NCBI GenBank assembly: GCA_045633845.1
Contig: JAZQZC010000036.1
Span: forward strand, 2,004-66,003
DNA length: 64,000 nucleotides
Reading direction: 5' to 3'
Origin: Clostridia bacterium
Lineage (GTDB): Bacteria; Bacillota; Clostridia; UMGS1810
How positions within the stretch are numbered: the stretch's first letter is position 1; every line of letters begins with the position of its first letter. The notes beneath the pieces are model-generated. The model was given only the letters and a program-made list of their open reading frames with translations. It did no database searches and was not told the origin of the DNA. Below are positions 24,557-63,538 of this stretch, piece after piece. The translations under genes and the position numbers were made by a program.

Positions 24557-26914
24557 TTATTTCATCAACATCTCATTATATTGCTCTCTTGTTATAAGCA
24601 CCTGACGAGGCTTGTTGCCGTCAAGCTCGGATATTATTCCGCGTCGTTCCATCTGGTCTATAATGCTTCCTGCTCTGTTGTAGCCTATGCGAAATCTCCT
24701 TTGCAAGAGAGATGTGGATATTGTACCACTGTCTACCGCCATTTCGATTGCCTCGGGCAGCAGCTCGTCTGCATCACCCGGGTCTTGTCCGTCGGGCTCG
24801 TAGTGTTCTTCGCTCTCAAGCTGCTCTATAACAGTTTCGTCATAAGACGGTGTATAGTCGCTGGAGACAGCCTCCACAACTTTTTTAACGTCGCCGTCCG
24901 ATACAAATGCACACTGCATACGGCTTGGCTTTGTTTCGCCAACAGGCATATAAAGCATATCACCTTTGCCTATAAGCTTTTCGGCGCCGCCCATATCAAG
25001 AATTGTTTGCGAATCACGCACCGACGCAACCATAAACGAAATACGGCTGGGTACATTGGCTTTAATGTTACCTGTAATAAATTTTACAACAGGTCGCTGT
25101 GTTGCAATTACAAGGTGCATACCTGCAGCGCGGGCAAGCTGAGCAATACGGCAAACATAGTTTTCTACATCGCCGGGGGCAACCATCATAAGGTCGGCAA
25201 ACTCGTCTATGAGTATAACAATAGACGGCATTTTGCCCTCGGGAGTCCCGTTGCGCTCCATAAGCTCGTTGTAGCCCTGAATGTTACGCACATTGTTTTG
25301 CTCAAAAATTGAGTATCGCTCGGTCATTTCTTTAACTGCCCAGCCAAGAGCACCTGTGGCTTTTTTTGCATCCTTAACCACAGGGATAAGCAGGTGGGGA
25401 ATACCGTTGTACACGCCAAGCTCAACCTGCTTGGGGTCTATCATAACAAGCTTTACTTCGTTTGGGTCTGCCTTGTACAAAAGGCTTATTACAAGTGTGT
25501 TTATGCATACACTCTTACCTGCACCTGTAGCACCTGCAATAAGCAAGTGGGGCATTTTTGCAAGGTCCATAATAATGGGCTTTCCGCTTATGTCTTTGCC
25601 CAGTGCAACCGCAAGCTTTGAGGGGTGATTTTTAAATTCGTCACTCTCGAGTACATCGCGCAGCATAACGTCGCTTCTGTTTTTGTTTGCAAGCTCAATT
25701 CCTATTGTGGTTTTGCCGGGTATTGGTGCAACCATAACGTCTTTTTCTGCCGCAAGGGCAAGAGCAAGGTCTTTTGAAAGTGAGGTTATCTGGCTAACCT
25801 TAACACCCTCGGCAGGCTTAACCTCGTAGCGTGTAATTGTGGGGCCCTGGCTGATTTCCACAACGCTTGCATCTACCTTAAAGCTGTGGAGTGTTTCAAC
25901 AAGCTGACGTGCATTTTGCTGAAGCTCCTCGCTTGATGCACCAGGTCCTGCGGCTCTTTTTGGCTTTGAAAGCAAGTCGAGCTGCGGGTAGTTGTACTGC
26001 AAAATCAAATCATTCTTTTCGGCTGCGGTTGTTTCCATCTCGCGCTTTATTTCGCAGTCAAGCTGCTCTTTTTCCTGCTCGGTAAGTCGCGGTTCAACCT
26101 CTGGCTCGGCAGCAACCTCGTGGTCGATGTATTCTTTTTCGCCGTTGGCTTTTATAATTTCTTTTCCTGCCTCTGTGTTTATTGTAATGTCGTTCGGCAT
26201 AACTTCAAACTGCTCTTCAACAGCCTTGATTTCCTGTTCTGCCTGTGCAACCTTTTTCTTGTCAACCTTTACCACTGTGTGAGCAACAGGGTTAAATTCT
26301 TCGTCTGCTTCTTTTCGGTTTTCTTCTTTTATGGTGTCAATATCCTCTTTTATGTGACGTGCAGTGCCTGTAATCATACGGATAATACTATTTATCACTT
26401 TTACAATGGAAATATTGAATATTGCTATACAAAGTATTATAAACAGTGCAAAAAACAAAATATTTGCTCCTACTGAGCCAAGAAGTGCCTGCATAGGCAT
26501 ACCAATGCTTGCACCTATAAGTCCGCCGCTTGGGTGAAGCTGTGCGTATGTATAGTACATTGCGTATTCCATACCGCTGCTTGAGGCCAAAATCATATGG
26601 AATATTGCGGTAAGGTCAATAAATGCAACGCCCGAGAGTATCATCTTTTTGCTTATTCCGTTTTTTTCGGGAGCAAACAGGCAGTATACCGTTGCTGCAA
26701 TTGCGGCAACAGGCAGCAAATATGCACAGTAGCCAAACAATCCCATAAAGCATTCGGATATAAAGCCGCCTACTGCACCGCCGCTTCCCGAATAGATGCT
26801 TATTGCAAAAAATATGCTTGCTGCAATTATGCAGACAGCAGTGATTTCAAATGATGCTGTACTTTTTGGGGCAGTACTTTTTACCTGCCTCTTTTTAGTG
26901 CTTTTTTTAGCCAT
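24557..26914 (-). CDS. ftsK: DNA translocase FtsK/SpoIIIE
   Basis: N-terminal TM domain, Walker A GATGAGKS, DEFADLMM, and a C-terminal gamma winged-helix (LLQRRFRIGYNRAGSIIDQME). Start set at MAKKSTKK (26914, RBS GAGGAA). The 24 extra N-terminal codons in the ORF track read into the inserted element. Confidence 0.93.
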   Translation of the reverse strand: MAKKSTKKRQVKSTAPKSTASFEITAVCIIAASIFFAISIYSGSGGAVGGFISECFMGLFGYCAYLLPVAAIAATVYCLFAPEKNGISKKMILSGVAFIDLTAIFHMILASSSGMEYAMYYTYAQLHPSGGLIGASIGMPMQALLGSVGANILFFALFIILCIAIFNISIVKVINSIIRMITGTARHIKEDIDTIKEENRKEADEEFNPVAHTVVKVDKKKVAQAEQEIKAVEEQFEVMPNDITINTEAGKEIIKANGEKEYIDHEVAAEPEVEPRLTEQEKEQLDCEIKREMETTAAEKNDLILQYNYPQLDLLSKPKRAAGPGASSEELQQNARQLVETLHSFKVDASVVEISQGPTITRYEVKPAEGVKVSQITSLSKDLALALAAEKDVMVAPIPGKTTIGIELANKNRSDVMLRDVLESDEFKNHPSKLAVALGKDISGKPIIMDLAKMPHLLIAGATGAGKSVCINTLVISLLYKADPNEVKLVMIDPKQVELGVYNGIPHLLIPVVKDAKKATGALGWAVKEMTERYSIFEQNNVRNIQGYNELMERNGTPEGKMPSIVILIDEFADLMMVAPGDVENYVCRIAQLARAAGMHLVIATQRPVVKFITGNIKANVPSRISFMVASVRDSQTILDMGGAEKLIGKGDMLYMPVGETKPSRMQCAFVSDGDVKKVVEAVSSDYTPSYDETVIEQLESEEHYEPDGQDPGDADELLPEAIEMAVDSGTISTSLLQRRFRIGYNRAGSIIDQMERRGIISELDGNKPRQVLITREQYNEMLMK

Positions 26915-26950
26915 TTTAATTCCTCGCTTATTTTTTTCTGAAGGTTTCCA

Positions 26951-27228
26951 TAGTGTGACAGGATTCGAACTCTCAATGCCTGACATCTGAAATTTTTGAA
27001 ATCTTTCAGTTTGTCGGTTTTGACGGGCGTCAGCCCGCCTGCAACCTGTCGCACTGAAATCTCAACAAAAATTTCAAGATGGCAGGTGCAAAGCAGTTTC
27101 ACATAGAAAAATTCTTCTGAAACAAGGTAAATTACGAAGGGAATACTTGCGTATTTTCAAGGAATTTACCGATGTTTTAGGTGAATTTTTTATGTGAAAC
27201 CAATGTTGGTTCGAGTCCTGTCACACTA
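26951..27228. mobile_element. Family-2 MITE-like element, copy A (274 bp plus flanking TA/TA)
   Basis: Termini GTGTGACAGGATTCGAAC / GTTCGAGTCCTGTCACAC with TA on both sides. 260/276 identical to the inverted copy at 48823-49098. Overlaps the last 16 codons of rho. Confidence 0.85.
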
Positions 27229-28526
27229 AGTTCTTTGTTACTTTTTGTTTTTAATAAGTTTGCAATCAGGGTTTCGGTAACATCGGCACCGCCGTTGCCT
27301 GACAGGCTTCGCCTTAATGCCCACGAAAATTCTTTTTCGCTTTTGGAGAGGATTAGCTCGTCTTTTCGTGTGCCAGATTTGTAAATGTCAATTGCAGGGA
27401 ATATTCTGCGCTCCGAAAGCCGTCTGTCAAGGTGAACCTCCATATTGCCTGTGCCTTTAAATTCTTCAAAAATTACATCGTCCATTCTGCTGCCTGTTTC
27501 GATAAGGGCAGTTGCAAGGATGGTAAGGCTGCCGCCTTTTTCGATGTTTCGAGCCGCACCAAAAAACTTTTTGGGCTTGTGCAGTGCAGCAGGGTCAATG
27601 CCGCCCGAGAGTGTTTTGCCTGTAGACGGAACAGTAAGGTTGTACGCTCTTGCAAGCCTTGTAATGCTGTCAAGGAGAATTACCACATCCTGTCCGTGCT
27701 CAACAAGGCGCTGTGCACGCTCCAAAACCATCTCGGCAACCTTTATGTGGTGCTCAGGCAGCTCGTCAAAGGTAGAATAAATAACCTCGCCGTCTATTGA
27801 GCGCTTCATATCGGTAACCTCTTCAGGTCTTTCGTCTATAAGCAAAACAATCAGGTTTACCTCGGGGTTGTTTTTGCTGATGCTGTTGGCAATGGATTTG
27901 AGCAGGGTGGTTTTGCCCGCCTTTGGCGGAGCAACAATCATACCTCGCTGACCCTTGCCTATGGGAGCAATAATGTCTACAAGACGCATTGCGTGGTTGT
28001 CTGGCTCTGCTTCAAGGCGTATCCTCTCGTTTGGATACACAGGGGTGAGCACGTCAAAGGGCTTGCGGTTGATTGCCTTGTCGAGAGTGTCGCCGTTTAT
28101 ATCCTTTACATATATAAGTGCGTCGGAACGCTCTCTGTCATTTTTTGGTCGGCATATGCCGTGAACCATATCGCCTGTCTTAAGACGAAAACGTCTTATC
28201 TGAACAGGTGATACATATGTATCGTCGTCTGTAGACAAATAATTTTCACCGCGCAAAAAACCATACCCATCCTCGCAAAGCTCCAGTATACCTGTAACCT
28301 CGTAGGTGTTATTTTGATTTTCGTTTTCGTTTTGGGGGGCTTTTTCGGCAGGAGTACCGTCGGGTATCTGTTCGGGGAGTGCTTGGTCGGTTTGTAAATC
28401 TTTATCGGACAACAAGTTTATAAGCTCGTCTTTTTTCAGCTTGCTTATGCTTTTGATGCCCTTTTCTTTTGCAAGCTCCTTGAGGCTTGCAAGTGACATT
28501 TTTTGCAATTCGTTTTTTGTGCTCAT
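27177..28526 (-). CDS. rho: Transcription termination factor Rho, with C-terminal 16 aa encoded by the inserted element
   Basis: Rho N-terminal domain ([14 protein letters not shown]), CSD-like RNA-binding domain (GYGFLR), Walker A PPKAGKT, and Q and R loops. The tail after ...KTKSNKEL is element sequence. Confidence 0.95.
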
Positions 28527-31207: not shown

Positions 31208-31480
31208 GGTGACAGAGTGATAAGAGGGGTGACAGTGGGGAAGTTCCTTTGCAAAAGGTGCGTCCCCATCTGTCACAGGTTAGTGTTTGCCATATGTTCG
31301 CACAACAAGCGAGGACACACCTCTTACGAGGAATGTCCCCGTTGTCATGCGAACATCCCCATTTGTCACAGTTTAGTGTTTGCCATATGTTCGCACAACA
31401 AGCGAGGACACACCTCTTACGAGGAATGTCCCCGTTGTCATGCGAACATCCCCATTTGTCAAAACATCCCCGTTTGTCAC
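31208..31480. repeat. Family-1 palindromic repeat, locus 3 (beta hairpin + two tandem 93-bp inverted alpha units + terminal motif)
   Basis: GGTGACAGTGGGGAAGTTCCTTTGCAAAAGGTGCGTCCCCATCTGTCAC, then 31277-31369 and 31370-31462 almost identical. Confidence 0.9.
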
Positions 31481-45495: not shown

Positions 45496-45538
45496 TTTTT
45501 TCGGGACGTCCAGGAGGCCGTCCCCTACATATATTGCA

Positions 45539-45717
45539 GGTGACAGGGGGATGTTCGCATGACAACGGGGACATTCCTCGCAAGAGGTGCATAGGTGACA
45601 GTGGGGAAGTTCCTTTGCAAAAGGTGCGTCCCCATCTGTCACCGATTAATTTTTTGCCATTTGTTCGCACAACAAACGGGGACGCACCTTCTGCGAAGGA
45701 ACTTCCCCCACTGTCCC
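45539..45717. repeat. Family-1 palindromic repeat, locus 4 (alpha half + beta hairpin + linker + beta variant)
   Basis: GGTGACAGGGGGATGTTCGCATGACAACGGGGACATTCCTCGCAAGAGG...GGTGACAGTGGGGAAGTTCCTTTGCAAAAGGTGCGTCCCCATCTGTCACC...ACGGGGACGCACCTTCTGCGAAGGAACTTCCCCCACTGTC. It ends at the gatD stop codon. Confidence 0.9.
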
Positions 45718-48821: not shown

Positions 48822-49099
48822 CAGTGTGACAGGACTCGAACCAACATTGGTTTCACATGAATAATTTACCTGAAACTTCAGTAAATTCCTTGAAAATACG
48901 CAAGTATTCCCTTCGAAATTTACCTTGTTTCAGAAAAATTATTCTATGTGAAACTGCTTTGCACCTGCCATCTTGAAATTTTTGTTAAGATTTCAGTGCG
49001 ACAGGTTGCAGGCGGGCTGACGCCCGTCAAAACCGACAATCTGAAAGATTACAAAAATTTCAGATGTCAGGCAGTGATAGTTCGAGTCCTGACACACTA
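48822..49099. mobile_element. Family-2 MITE-like element, copy B (inverted relative to copy A)
   Basis: GTGTGACAGGACTCGAACC...AGTTCGAGTCCTGACACAC, flanked by CA on the left and TA on the right. 94 percent identical to the reverse complement of copy A. Lies 19 nt upstream of the EIIC-like start codon. Confidence 0.85.
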
Positions 49100-49209
49100 T
49101 ATTAATATTATTCTATACCAAATTTAAAAAAAGTTCAACAGTTTAAAGTGTATTTTATGCATAATTCGTCATTTGGTATATATTTATATAATTGAAAGGA
49201 GTTTTTTTG

Positions 49210-50776: not shown

Positions 50777-51050
50777 GTGACAGTTGGGGATGTTCGCATG
50801 ACAACGGGGACATTGCTCGCAAGAGGTGTGTCCTCGCTTGTTGTGCGAACAGATAAAAACTAACCAGCGACAGACGGGGACGCACCTTTTGCAAAGGAAT
50901 ATCCCCATTTGTCACTTTTGCACAAAAGAGCTCGGTGGGGGATATTCGTCCGCAGGACGTGTGTCCCCGCATCCGGGCGACCGCAAGTGACAGTAGACAG
51001 ACGGGGACGCACCTTTTGCAAAGGAACATCCCCGTCTGTCTACTGTCACC
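50777..51050. repeat. Family-1 palindromic repeat, locus 5 (alpha + beta + degenerate beta + extended beta)
   Basis: GTGACAGTTGGGGATGTTCGCATGACAACGGGGACATTGCTCGCAAGAGG... ending with a perfect 21-bp stem GTGACAGTAGACAGACGGGGA / TCCCCGTCTGTCTACTGTCAC. Confidence 0.9.
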
Positions 51051-58027: not shown

Positions 58028-59071
58028 ATGGATAGAGCACACAAACTTTTACCGCTTTTGTCGGAGCTTGGGCTTGATGCAATACTTGTAACCGACCGCA
58101 AAAATGTTTTGTATTTTTCGCACTTTTCGGGCAGCAACGGGTATCTTGTTGTTACAAAGACACAAAAAATACTTGTTACCGACTCTAGATATACAACTCA
58201 GTCAAAAATGCAGGCACCCGAATTTCAAATAGAGGAAATGAGAGATTTTAAAATTGAGAATGTCCTGGGTGACAAGGCAAAGGTTGGCTTTGAAAACAAA
58301 ACAATTCTGCACTGCGAATATTGCTCATTCAGCAGCAAAATCAAACAGCTTGTGCCCCTTGATTTTGCTCTTACTCAAATAAGAAGTATAAAAGACGATG
58401 AAGAAATAAAAAATATATCATATGCCGCACAAATTGCTGACAAAGCATTTTTGCATATGACAGATTTTATTCGCGAGGGGATGACAGAGCTTGAGGCTGC
58501 GTTTGAGCTCGAAATGTATATGCGAAGCCTCGGCGCATCGTCAGTGTCTTTTGAGTCTATTGTTGCTTCGGGCAAAAACGGCGCAATGCCCCACGCACGG
58601 CCGTCAGACAAAAAAATGCAAAACGGCGACCTTGTTGTTATGGACTTTGGCTGTGTGTATAACGGCTACTGCAGCGATATGACCCGCACCATTGCAATAG
58701 GAGCTGTATCACAGCAAAAGCTTGATGTGTACAATACTGTGCTTAAGGTTCAAAAAGAGTGTATCAATATGGCAAAGCCCGGAGCAAAATGCAGTGACAT
58801 ACATAATCATTCATTTAAAAGCCTTGACAACATTTACAAAAATTGCTATGGTCACGGCCTTGGTCACGGAGTGGGGTTGGAAATACACGAGCTGCCAAAC
58901 CTCAATTCAAAAAGTGATTATGTGCTCCAAACGGGTAATGTAATAACCATAGAGCCGGGTGTATATATCGAGGACTTATGCGGTGTCAGAATAGAAGATT
59001 TGGTTTTAATAACAGATGAAGGATGCAAAATTTTATCGAATTCTACCAAAGAATTAATAAAAATCAAATAA
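58028..59071 (+). CDS. M24-family Xaa-Pro aminopeptidase
   Basis: Creatinase-like N-terminal domain, then metal ligands in DFGCVYNGYCSDMTRT, HGLGHGVGLEIHE, and IEPGVY...RIED. Confidence 0.88.
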   Translation: MDRAHKLLPLLSELGLDAILVTDRKNVLYFSHFSGSNGYLVVTKTQKILVTDSRYTTQSKMQAPEFQIEEMRDFKIENVLGDKAKVGFENKTILHCEYCSFSSKIKQLVPLDFALTQIRSIKDDEEIKNISYAAQIADKAFLHMTDFIREGMTELEAAFELEMYMRSLGASSVSFESIVASGKNGAMPHARPSDKKMQNGDLVVMDFGCVYNGYCSDMTRTIAIGAVSQQKLDVYNTVLKVQKECINMAKPGAKCSDIHNHSFKSLDNIYKNCYGHGLGHGVGLEIHELPNLNSKSDYVLQTGNVITIEPGVYIEDLCGVRIEDLVLITDEGCKILSNSTKELIKIK

Positions 59072-59714: not shown

Positions 59715-59754
59715 TTTCTGTTTAAATAATTTTTAAGAAAGGTTGGTTGTTGTT

Positions 59755-60174
59755 ATGGAAAATATTTCAAATCAGATTTCTTATTTAAAAGGTCTTGTGG
59801 AAGGTCTTGATATAGACGCATCTTCCAAAGAAGGTAAAGTATTTGAGGCTATTATAGACGCTCTTGACGAAATTAATGATACAATCAACGATTTGTATGA
59901 TTATCAGGACGAAATTGCAGAGCAGGTAGATATGATTGATGACGACCTTGCAGAGATTGAAGAAGAGCTCATCGATTGCTGCGACGAGGATTGCGATTGC
60001 TGCGACGACTGTGATTTTGATGACGATATCGAGTATTACGAAATTGAGTGTCCCAACTGTCATGATGTAATCTGCATCGATGAAGATTGCTTTGAGGATG
60101 ATGACGAAATCGTTTGCCCTAACTGCAGCGAGCCAATCGAAATCAATTTTGAAGTAGAACAAGACGAAGAATAA
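59755..60174 (+). CDS. Highly acidic Cys-rich zinc-ribbon protein (function unknown)
   Basis: 139 aa. Helical acidic N-terminal half, a CCDEDCDCCDDC cluster, then CPNC...17 aa...CPNC. Confidence 0.5.
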   Translation: MENISNQISYLKGLVEGLDIDASSKEGKVFEAIIDALDEINDTINDLYDYQDEIAEQVDMIDDDLAEIEEELIDCCDEDCDCCDDCDFDDDIEYYEIECPNCHDVICIDEDCFEDDDEIVCPNCSEPIEINFEVEQDEE

Positions 60175-60213: not shown

Positions 60214-60490
60214 TAGCCGAAAGATAGTAATCCGAACCTCGATTTTAAAAGGTGAATTTTCGCTTTCGTTGTGTTAAAATACTCGGTAATCCACCAAGGA
60301 TTACCTGCGTTTTTGCCTTACGCAACCAAAAATTCACTACTTTTAAAATTCCACGACCTGAACCAGATGGAATTTTGAGTAAATTTTGGTGCGGAAGATG
60401 AAGCAAGGCTGACGCCTTGCAACTAGACATAACCGAAAGTTACCCAAATTACGCTGTTTCAGGCGGGTTCGGATTACTCTCTTTCGGCTA
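60214..60490. mobile_element. Family-2 MITE-like element, divergent copy C (273 bp plus TA/TA)
   Basis: Termini GCCGAAAGATAGTAATCCGAACC / GGTTCGGATTACTCTCTTTCGGC, flanked by TA on both sides. It has the same length and helix layout as copies A/B and shares GGCTGACGCC at the same offset. Confidence 0.75.
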
Positions 60491-60550
60491 GCCTTATCTG
60501 CCTACGGTAAGGCTATGTACAATTTTTGTTTATATGTAGGCGGAAAGGCT

Positions 60551-62650
60551 ATGGAAAATCAAATGACAAGAGTATCAGATATGTTTGGTTCAATGGTGTT
60601 TAACGATACTGTTATGAGGGAAAGACTCCCGAGAGAAACATATAAAGCACTTCAAAAAACCATAAAAGACGGCAAACATCTTGAGCTTAGTCTTGCCACT
60701 ATTGTTGCAAATGCAATGAAGGATTGGGCTATCGAAAAAGGTGCTACACATTATACACACTGGTTTCAGCCTATGACAGGCATCACTGCCGAAAAGCACG
60801 ACAGCTTTATTACCCCTACCGAAAACGGCAAGGTTATAATGGAGTTTTCGGGCAAGGAGCTTGTTAAGGGTGAGCCTGATGCGTCATCATTCCCATCGGG
60901 CGGACTTCGTGCTACCTTTGAGGCGCGCGGTTACACTGCCTGGGATCCATCATCATATGCATTTATAAAAGATAATATCCTTTGTATTCCCACAGCTTTT
61001 TGCTCATTTGGCGGCGAGGCTCTTGACAACAAAACCCCGCTTCTTCGCTCAATGGAAGCTATTAACCGCCAGGCAATGCGCGTAATCAAGCTTTTTGGCA
61101 ACGAAAATGTCACATCTATTAAAACAACTGTGGGTCCCGAGCAGGAGTATTTTCTTATTGACAAGGATGTGTACGAGCAGCGCAAGGACCTTATATACAC
61201 AGGCCGTACTCTTTTTGGTGCCCGCGCTCCAAAAGGTCAGGAAATGGATGACCATTACTTTGGCGCCATAAAACCGAGAGTTGCAGCCTTTATGGATGAA
61301 CTCAATGAGGAGTGCTGGAAGCTTGGTATTCTGGCAAAAACACAGCATAACGAGGCAGCTCCTGCGCAGCACGAGCTTGCTCCTGTATACACAACAACAA
61401 ATATTGCGGCAGACCACAATCAGCTCACAATGGAGCTTATGCAAAAAATTGCAAAAAAACACAATATGGTATGCCTGCTTCACGAAAAGCCCTTTAAAGG
61501 CGTTAACGGCAGCGGCAAGCATAACAACTGGTCACTTACCACAAACACAGGTGTTAACCTGCTTGAACCAGGGGACACCCCATACGAAAATGCACAGTTT
61601 ATATTGTTTTTGTGTGCAGTTATCAAAGCAGTTGACGAGTATCAGGATTTGCTGAGAATTTCCATTGCATCGCCAGGCAACGACCACCGACTTGGTGCCA
61701 ACGAAGCGCCGCCTGCAATTGTGTCAATGTTTTTGGGTGATGAGCTAAATGAGGTTCTCGAGGCTATCGAAAATGATACAGGCTACGATGCTAAAGAAAA
61801 AGAGGTTATGAGAGTCGGCGTACATATTTTGCCAAAATTTAACCGCGACACCACCGACCGCAACCGAACAAGCCCCTTTGCATTTACAGGCAACAAGTTT
61901 GAGTTTCGTATGCTTGGTTCGTCTGCATCGGTTTCGTTTAGCAACGTGGTAATAAACACCGCTGTTGCAGAGGTGCTGCGCACATTTGCCGACGAGCTCG
62001 AAAATTCAAAGGATTTTGATAACGATTTGCACGCTTTGGTTGCAAAAACAATAAAAGAGCATAAGCGTATAATCTTTAACGGCAACGGTTATGATGATGC
62101 CTGGGTGGCAGAAGCCAAAAAACGCGGACTTTTAAATCTCAAATCCACACCCGATTGCCTGCCGTACTTTATAAAAGACAAAAACATTGCTCTGTTTACA
62201 ACACACAAGGTATTTTCCGAAACAGAGATGCGTGCAAGATACGAAATAATGCTCGAAAATTATTCAAAGCTTATTAATATCGAAACACTCACTGCTCTCG
62301 ATATGACTAAAAAGCAGATACTTCCTGCGGTCAGCGCATATATTAAACAAATTGCCGAAACGGCACTTGCAAAAAAACCTTTTGGTGCAGATACCACATA
62401 TGAGGTTGAAACACTCACTTTAATGTCAAAGCTTGCAGGTGAGGCGCATAATCTTGTTTGCGAGCTTGAAAATCACTCGCGTGAGGCAGAATCAATAAAA
62501 GATGCAAAAGAAAAAGCGGATTATTATAAGGATAATGTACTTGTTACAATGGCACAAATCAGAGAAAGAATTGACGCTCTTGAATCTATGACATCTGCAA
62601 AATACTGGCCATATCCTTCATACGGCGAGCTGCTTTTTGGTATTAAGTAA
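60551..62650 (+). CDS. glnN: Glutamine synthetase, type III
   Basis: About 700 aa. N-terminal [18 protein letters not shown] and [12 protein letters not shown], then [10 protein letters not shown]. The start at ATG 60551 is uncertain; ATG 60563 is also possible. Confidence 0.88.
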
Positions 62651-63281: not shown

Positions 63282-63287
63282 CTTTTT

Positions 63288-63538
63288 TGTAGGCGTTGAA
63301 GATGTGTAAGTAGCAAAAGAATTTTCTTCAAAGAGAGAGCATATCGTCGGCTGTGAGTATGCTTGTTGAAACCTTTTGTGAATTTCAGCATTGGAGCCTT
63401 CTGCGAAAAGTATTTTGCGTTAAGCAGACATTACCGTAATGGCAAAAATCGGACTAAAAGAGCGAAATTTATATTTCGAAATAGGGTGGTACCGCGAGCA
63501 ATCTCGTCCCTTACATATGGGCGATGATTGCTTTTTTG
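63288..63538 (+). promoter_or_regulatory. T-box riboswitch, Phe specifier (UUC)
   Basis: AGAGAG bay, distal-loop GCTGTGA, a specifier-loop candidate GAATTTCA (UUC followed by A), the T-box sequence AATAGGGTGGTACCGCG (63480-63496), and the terminator GAGCAATCTCGTCCC...GGGCGATGATTGC plus TTTTTT. Confidence 0.85.

Follow-up and report, generated by a model that had tools for sequence, protein, structure and literature searches.

The window, that is, the whole stretch of 64,000 nucleotides analyzed here from a contig of a Clostridia bacterium, contains two copies of one element in opposite orientations. A repeat search of the window returned arms at 26950-27227 and 48823-49100 that are 278 nt long and 94% complementary, and the inverted repeat reported in a preliminary description of this DNA is real: 26951-27228 on the + strand (copy A) and 48822-49099 on the - strand (copy B) are 94% identical and can be aligned without gaps. 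The 20-mer TAGTGTGACAGGAYTCGAAC is present at all four ends of the two copies with zero or one mismatch, and it occurs nowhere else in the window. Copy A is located between rho (27177-28526, - strand) and ftsK (start at 26914, - strand), and copy B between a PTS EIIC gene, whose protein has no exact match on record, and a divergent ORF. A third member of the same superfamily, copy C (60214-60490, - strand), belongs to a different subfamily; it is 277 nt long, has TA on both flanks and the terminal repeat TAGCCGAAAGAGAGTAATCCGAACC, is 75% identical to the element of locus L066, and is situated between the ORFs 59743-60174 and 60515-62650. Elsewhere in the window we observed a T-box leader at 63287-63514 (+ strand; Rfam RF00230, 102.9 bits), which fits a Firmicutes/Clostridia origin, and clustered palindromic units of 45-60 nt at 1553-1746, 2416-2551, 31218-31461, 45536-45717, and 50777-51042, arranged in a REP/BIME-like layout; these units (GTGACAGnTGGGGA..CCTTTnnAAAGG..TCCCCAnCTGTCAC and GGGGATGTTCGCATGACAACGGGGACATTCCTCGCAAGAGGTG) have no sequence relation to the elements described here.

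The origin of copy A can be read from the adjacent genes. The closest Rho homologs (91% and 85% identity) end in ...KELMETFRKK*, with ftsK 13 nt downstream. Rho of the window ends in ...KEL followed by 16 element-encoded residues; the new 3' end of the gene, 16 codons and a stop, occupies 27177-27227 on the - strand. The seven codons that formerly closed rho, together with its stop (ATG GAA ACC TTC AGA AAA AAA TAA = METFRKK*), have been displaced and remain beyond the element at 26928-26951 on the - strand, followed on that strand by the ribosome-binding site and the start (26914) of ftsK. The empty site is found at loci L120 and L116; it reads AAAGAACTGATGGAAACC in L120, compared to AAAGAACT-TA-[GTGTG...CACAC]-TA-TGGAAACC in the window. 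Since the rho frame is restored only by removing the element together with one TA, copy A is, as judged from these alignments, a MITE insertion with TA target duplication inside the last seven rho codons; the comparison, made at the rho-ftsK junction of relatives, covers copy A only. The insertion exchanged the last seven residues of Rho for 16 element-encoded ones and moved ftsK to a distance of about 280 nt from rho. Because the rho genes of relatives provide the empty site, the elements are not a stand-alone RNA gene.

Including the two TA target duplications (26951-26952 and 27227-27228), copy A spans 26951-27228 on the + strand, the element proper being 26953-27226 plus one TA. The strand with the core sequence GACGGGCGTCAGCCCGCCTG is called 'top' here; in copy A it is the + strand and in copy B the - strand. 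The left terminal inverted repeat (26953-26977, + strand) forms the 5' strand of the closing stem P1 and pairs with 27201-27226 (+ strand), the right terminal inverted repeat and 3' strand of P1. Inside P1, hairpin 1 (26978-27087, 110 nt) folds more stably as the - (bottom) strand, with -49.0 against -44.1 kcal/mol, and hairpin 2 (27096-27200, 105 nt) as the + (top) strand, with -42.5 against -33.0 kcal/mol. They are separated by the junction linker GCAAAGCA (27088-27095, + strand), which lies within the conserved sequence CAGGTGCnAAGCAGTTT. The tip of hairpin 1 carries an invariant 20-nt core (27022-27041, + strand) that forms on the bottom strand a 7-bp stem GGCGGGC/GCCCGUC with a UGAC loop and the flanks GCA...AA, and the apex module of hairpin 2 (27117-27180) matches model R1. 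The right end also contains GGTTCGAGTCC; a tRNA-like T-arm was considered and rejected, as this sequence, whose partner is the left end, only resembles one; neither a tRNA nor a tmRNA was detected in the window.

Copy B, with its top strand on the - strand of the window, is organized in the same way, with hairpin 1 at 48963-49072, the core at 49009-49028, and hairpin 2 at 48850-48954. Its flanking TA at 49098-49099 is intact and the other flank is mutated to TG; between the end of the copy and the downstream start codon of PTS EIIC (48804) there are 17 nt. A promoter-like sequence TTGAAC-17-TAGAAT (49110-49138, - strand), identified by its match to the consensus only, closely precedes copy B; a PTS EIIC mRNA starting there would contain all of copy B, as its top strand, in the leader. 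In copy C hairpin 1 has the tip CAAGGC-GTCA-GCCTTG, in which the loop is unchanged and the stem covaries.

Short size, lack of coding capacity, terminal repeats, and dispersal define miniature inverted-repeat transposable elements, or MITEs (PMC3184786). The elements are 276-278 bp long, which is below the MITE bound of about 600 bp, and have no capacity to encode a transposase; their terminal inverted repeats measure 20-28 bp and stem P1 about 21-28 bp. They occur in many dispersed copies, and a target duplication against an empty site was found for copy A. The TA duplication characteristic of IS630/Tc1-mariner transposons is thus present in this copy, and one subfamily (TAGTGCTCC...) may make a 4-bp CTAG duplication instead of TA. 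Protein coding was rejected: frames are open through the GC-rich core, yet starts, stops, and frame usage are not conserved between subfamilies. Transposase genes with matching ends were found neither in the window, nor at 241 fetched loci, nor between the distant pair of end matches at L175, where the 4.8-kb interval holds housekeeping genes.

A gap-free comparison of copies A and B yields 16 differences within the element and two more at its outer edge. The preliminary description read four of them as two compensatory changes in one helix. The pair C27114-G27183 of copy A, T-A in copy B, does hold in the minimum free energy (MFE) folds of both copies. The other pair, A27109/T27188 against T/A, is compensatory in the register of copy B, but in the MFE fold of copy A the helix slips by one base and 27109 pairs with 27187. 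Three pairs described there as G:T in copy A and G:C in copy B were confirmed (26964:27215, 27119:27178, and 27106:27191), and a fourth alternation, absent from that description, is seen at 27126:27170, which is G:C in copy A and G:T in copy B. Read on the + strand of copy A, each of the four alternations is a wobble; hairpin 2 contains three of them. In the related copy L078 from another species the two compensatory pairs are in the A state at each of their members, and the other positions form a mosaic of the A and B states; hence the paired changes co-segregate. The fold of copy A is far beyond chance on either strand, with -124.7 kcal/mol (z = -14.2) for the + strand and -115.2 kcal/mol (z = -11.7) for the opposite one.

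The family extends far beyond the window. In a scan of one genome per species, the 20-nt core was found at more than 115 loci, nearly all of them in gut metagenome-assembled genomes of Oscillospiraceae/Clostridia. About 14 of these core matches can be aligned to the window element over its full length; the remaining ones share only a core of about 24 nt at the tips of long hairpins, the arms being unrelated between subfamilies. Still other elements with unrelated arms have, at the hairpin tip, a covarying stem flanked by GCAGG...UCAAGG. As the loci were picked by an exact match to the core or a terminal repeat, the conservation of these particular 20-mers is partly by construction; moreover, the subfamilies share ancestry and are not fully independent.

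Two architectures are observed. Simple elements consist of one hairpin of 155-180 nt, and composite elements of the closing stem, the core-bearing hairpin 1, the linker (CAGGTGCnAAGCAGTTT), and hairpin 2. Five composite subfamilies, with unalignable arms, were found via the core; four are 277-279 nt long and that of L066 is 253 nt. In a metagenome scan the right terminal repeat was detected in more than 120 human-gut contigs, most of which represent a sixth subfamily of 276-277 nt with the same ends and a replaced interior, whose hairpin 1 tip is the antisense of GCAGGAATAC-TGCC-GTATTTCAAG. The length of composite elements is therefore 276-279 nt in all subfamilies but the 253-nt one. Further terminal repeats of these elements are, among others, TAGTGCTCCATCC and TAGAGCAGCACCC. 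Oscillospiraceae bacterium 50-58, MGBC151848, and the CAKSTI01 MAG are examples of genomes that contain the elements in large numbers.

The neighboring genes are unrelated across loci, with sigma factors, SpoVA-like proteins, and ABC transporters as recurring kinds, and no recurrent neighbor protein family was found near the fetched loci. The core has a single match among 2.9 million viral contigs, and BLASTN gave no match in plasmid and phage collections. In Rfam 15 the window elements had no match at gathering or permissive thresholds, the best sub-threshold candidates being chance miRNA-like hairpins, and elements of 18 loci covering all subfamilies did not match Rfam families either. Our literature search found the core sequence in no paper and no relevant MITEs of these taxa. 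Long-hairpin MITEs are a kind already known (PMC3184786); what we did not find described is the superfamily itself, its fixed architecture and tip motif across unrelated arms, and the opposite polarity of its modules.

Several observations concern the wider population of these elements. Modules with tips of the GGAATAC/GTATT- or AATCC/GGATT-type and no canonical core are present at L068 (7846-7911), L100 (6225-6289), L095 (473-526), L104 (1905-1969), and L025 (about 75-415), so that the superfamily is larger than the core scan shows. In human-gut contigs (L126, L127, L128, L140, L144, L177, L186, L203, L226, and L240) the right flank of the S10 element often adjoins another element family, which starts with TAGGCAAACGAGAATAATCCGAACCCG, the TA being shared by the two; this suggests that elements insert beside ends already in place, that the two travel as a pair, or that the assemblies are tangled. 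Mini-hairpins of 31 nt (TAGTGTGACAGGTTCGAGTCCTGTCACACTA) in L157, L199, L205, and L240 consist of the two ends only; they may have arisen by deletion across a CAGG microhomology or have been left behind by excision. Deletion derivatives of 106 nt and 200 nt were seen in L047 and L175, respectively. Finally, two species have elements of different subfamilies, in opposite orientation, at about the same position of an orthologous locus directly behind a gene for a MATE transporter (L004, 6787-6948; L091, 4081-4240), which points to independent insertions at a favored spot.

Conservation of the fold was assessed in 21 composite copies from five subfamilies, with base pairs taken from RNAalifold. 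The consensus has 73 pairs, 42 of which show double-sided changes; 95.9% of the cells are paired, compared with 77.8% in column shuffles and 33-52% with slid partners, and none of 500 shuffles reached the observed value by any measure. The covariation that the preliminary description expected of a conserved fold is thus found, and its claim that more than the terminal repeats is conserved stands, the fold being kept across six composite subfamilies with unrelated arms. The tip stems also covary (CGGGC/GCCCG, GAATAC/GTATTT, AATCC/GGATT, CAATAC/GTATTG, and CAAGGC/GCCTTG) within the constant flanks GCAGG...(U)CAAGG. The sense-strand tip signature is GCAAGG-N7-8-CGCAGG-[stem-loop]-UCAAGGA-N6-7-CGCAGC, in which the internal loop C-AA-G/C-GCA-G occurs twice in dyad relation. 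Composite members carry two such modules in opposite polarity inside the closing stem.

These data bear on another explanation, by which the element is a common MITE that depends on its terminal repeats only, and palindromy, core, and wobble bias are leftovers of a palindromic ancestor. Individual copies do decay neutrally, as described below, and bacterial MITEs are classically known for long stem-loops (PMC3184786). However, the arms have diverged beyond alignment while pairing, length, junction, and tip motif were kept, the wobble polarity of the variable arms is the same in every subfamily, and a subfamily with identical ends and a replaced interior keeps the architecture. We consider this explanation very improbable.

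A perfect palindrome folds equally well on both strands, and differences between the strands come from G:T versus A:C pairs and from loops. Simple elements fold better on the bottom strand, by 5-37 kcal/mol. In each of the 22 composite copies the bottom strand gives the better fold of hairpin 1 (a difference of about 4-21 kcal/mol) and the top strand that of hairpin 2 (about 5-20 kcal/mol). When the tips were replaced by GAAA, leaving the arms as the only source of asymmetry, the bottom strand was still preferred by 51 of 52 simple elements and by hairpin 1 of all 22 composite copies, and the top strand by hairpin 2 of all 22. With DNA parameters the corresponding counts are 51/52, 19/22, and 21/22; the asymmetry becomes smaller, and is gone for hairpin 1 of copies A and B. 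In the subfamily of the window the asymmetry of hairpin 1 is small (about 3-9 kcal/mol) and vanishes or reverses with DNA parameters. As the asymmetry largely persists with DNA parameters, RNA and single-stranded DNA (ssDNA) are indistinguishable from sequence. We base the asymmetry mainly on energies, because wobble counts on alifold pairs depend on the strand that supplies the pair list and are circular; a wobble census of this kind was dropped in favor of the energies, for which removal of the tips served as a control.

A covariance model of the hairpin 2 tips, built on the top strand, recognized the tips of 12 simple elements that had not gone into it; every match (E from 1e-5 to 0.035) was to the bottom strand, and the top strand gave none. 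Hence the two hairpins are related modules of opposite polarity. A weak match of the model at 58324-58378 is an unrelated small hairpin. The strand on which a module folds best is the one with its 3' end at the tip closer to that module.

The preliminary description had ascribed the wobbles to one strand, proposed selection on a folded RNA or ssDNA form as opposed to conserved transposase-binding ends only, and raised the question of a discrete RNA of about 270 nt from the copy-A-plus/copy-B-minus strand. The wobbles are indeed strand-specific, but the bias is split, with hairpin 2 following the proposed strand and hairpin 1 the opposite one, each in 22/22 copies. A structured non-coding RNA from that strand would account for the compensatory changes and the top-strand wobbles between copies A and B, and the MFE of the whole element is 5-10 kcal/mol better on this strand in all copies of the window's subfamily. 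The excess, however, comes from hairpin 2 only. Moreover, copy A is a TA-duplicating transposon insertion in a coding region and is most likely transcribed from the opposite strand in rho-ftsK, no promoter or terminator is conserved, and an Rfam match is lacking. A separate RNA of this kind is therefore hardly credible.

Where selection acts was addressed by counting mutations within four simple subfamilies, the counts being small. Singleton changes at Watson-Crick pairs comprise 24 wobbles on the bottom strand, 24 wobbles on the top strand, 32 other mismatches, and 6 compensated changes; for the shared changes these numbers are 17, 4, 9, and 16. As the singletons look neutral and the shared changes are fold-preserving, it seems to be propagation that needs the fold, and not each single locus. 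The pattern seems to reflect neutral decay after insertion combined with fold-preserving change along lineages that are still transposing. Consistent with neutral decay, no orientation bias relative to flanking genes was observed (among single-hairpin elements, 36 are co-oriented and 42 opposite).

These counts also weigh on a further possibility, namely that co-transcription of the MITE with host genes lets the hairpins function at the RNA level, in processing, stability, or insulation like ERIC, Correia, and BOX. With two modules of opposite polarity a composite element would work in either orientation, and elements of this kind would be tolerated and hence persist. Copy A lies inside the rho-ftsK operon, where it must be transcribed as the bottom strand for ftsK to be expressed and probably is. 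Copy B, at which no intrinsic terminator was found, is situated between the promoter-like site and the ribosome-binding site of PTS EIIC, and it is probably transcribed as the top strand, from 49110-49138, in the leader of the PTS EIIC mRNA. Stems rich in G:U are typically found in RNA, RNA parameters give a larger asymmetry than DNA parameters do, and MITE transcripts are known substrates of RNase III/E (PMC10969869; PMC3184786). At the same time, the singletons are not fold-sparing (24:24:32), so that single loci seem unconstrained, no gene orientation is preferred though only one strand folds well, and neither terminator nor promoter signals are conserved. An internal promoter, TTGAAA-N17/18-CGTAAT-like, seen in the antisense of the hairpin 2 tip in S5/S6, was considered and rejected, being absent in S7 and without an equivalent in hairpin 1. 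Overall, we regard a function as co-transcribed RNA as unlikely.

Strand-specific folding could also indicate an ssDNA element of a HUH-type enzyme, similar to REPIN/RAYT or IS200/IS605, with GCAG and the stem-loop as the recognition site. The conserved flanks around a covarying hairpin (GCAGG...UCAAGG) and the opposite polarity of the modules, as in REP doublets, agree with this, and the antisense strand of each tip contains CCTTGA, which we take, as a lead only, to resemble the CTTG cleavage motifs of Rep/IS91 enzymes. On the other hand, symmetric terminal repeats and an empty site with TA duplication fit staggered double-strand cutting, the modules are about 110 nt and not 20-40 nt long, and no Y1/Y2 transposase gene stands beside any of the 241 fetched loci, though RAYT genes are normally flanked by the repeats. 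We find an element of this type quite improbable.

The explanation that we favor, with moderate confidence, is that both repeats are copies of a 276-bp TA-duplicating non-autonomous MITE from a superfamily of gut Oscillospirales/Clostridia, whose hairpin modules would fold as single strands for propagation. In the proposed mechanism, a TA-specific transposase, IS630/Tc1-mariner-like or IS5/IS427-like, would recognize the terminal repeats in trans, and propagation of the element would require the hairpin modules to adopt their fold in single-stranded nucleic acid. Because selection appears to act on mobility and each module folds best on the strand with its 3' end at the nearer tip, ssDNA would be favored over RNA as the folded form. 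The twice-repeated C-AA-G/C-GCA-G loops might then serve as a binding platform for a protein, possibly a dimer. It is conceivable, and we suggest it only tentatively, that the superfamily represents a class of mobile DNA whose spread depends on strand-specific folding of long hairpin modules, one per strand and each on the strand with its 3' end at the nearer tip, with the dyad internal-loop motif recruiting a protein. If true, this would imply hairpin-dependent (ssDNA- or RNA-assisted) transposition or a second-strand-synthesis step, not known for TA-duplicating transposons with terminal repeats.

The usual view is that MITEs require nothing but their terminal repeats. In the superfamily described here, length, three-way junction, tip motif, and wobbles on a defined strand are kept throughout while all else is replaced and single copies decay, which points to a structural requirement for mobility itself and offers a handle on the movement of hairpin-type bacterial MITEs. 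In human-gut Clostridia the family is abundant; it breaks metagenome assemblies, many matches being at contig ends, and it alters genes, as in the window, where the C-terminus of Rho is rewritten and rho is separated from ftsK.

Among known systems, the elements are similar to ERIC/IRU, Correia (NEMIS), and RUP in being short, non-coding, dispersed, mostly intergenic, and co-transcribed, with terminal repeats and stem-loops (general features in PMC3184786; PMC10969869). Unlike these families, which are 100-160 bp long and share no sequence similarity with them, they are twice as long, form a three-way junction of two modules of about 110 nt with opposite polarity, and retain a superfamily-wide tip motif and a fixed length across unrelated arms. 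Insertion at TA has been reported for Correia, ERIC, and RUP, and RUP has been linked to IS630-Spn1; to our knowledge, the mobilizing enzymes of ERIC and Correia elements are still unknown. We also know of no description of strand-specific wobble maintenance in the ERIC, Correia, or RUP families.

With the REP/REPIN-RAYT system (Y1 HUH) the elements share a small hairpin with a conserved 5' tetranucleotide, inverted pairs, strand-specific folding, and hundreds of extragenic copies. However, REPs are 20-40 nt long with a 5' GTAG, have no terminal repeats or target duplication, and flank RAYT genes, whereas the modules described here are about 110 nt and TA-flanked; an assignment to this system was rejected on unit size, the TA duplication, and the lack of a recurrent neighbor gene. 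The emphasis on structure over sequence, a single folded active strand, and imperfect hairpins tolerant of G:T are also typical of integron attC sites and of IS200/IS605 ends. An attC site has R and L boxes and stands in cassette arrays next to an integrase, features that are absent here; it was rejected as a candidate, the ends being GTTCGAG and not GTTRRRY, and the copies solitary and located among housekeeping genes in either orientation. Ends of the IS200/IS605 type lack terminal inverted repeats and a duplication, and their subterminal hairpins share one strand; an IS200/IS605-derived PATE was likewise rejected in view of the terminal repeats, the TA duplication, and the preference of the two hairpins for opposite strands. 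In TA duplication, terminal repeats, and hairpin-forming non-autonomous derivatives the elements resemble the MITEs of Tc1/mariner-IS630 transposons, such as plant Stowaway, and the IS5/IS427 group; they differ from both in that no autonomous partner was found at the loci analyzed and that their internal modules are conserved in structure, which the binding of a transposase to the terminal repeats does not explain.
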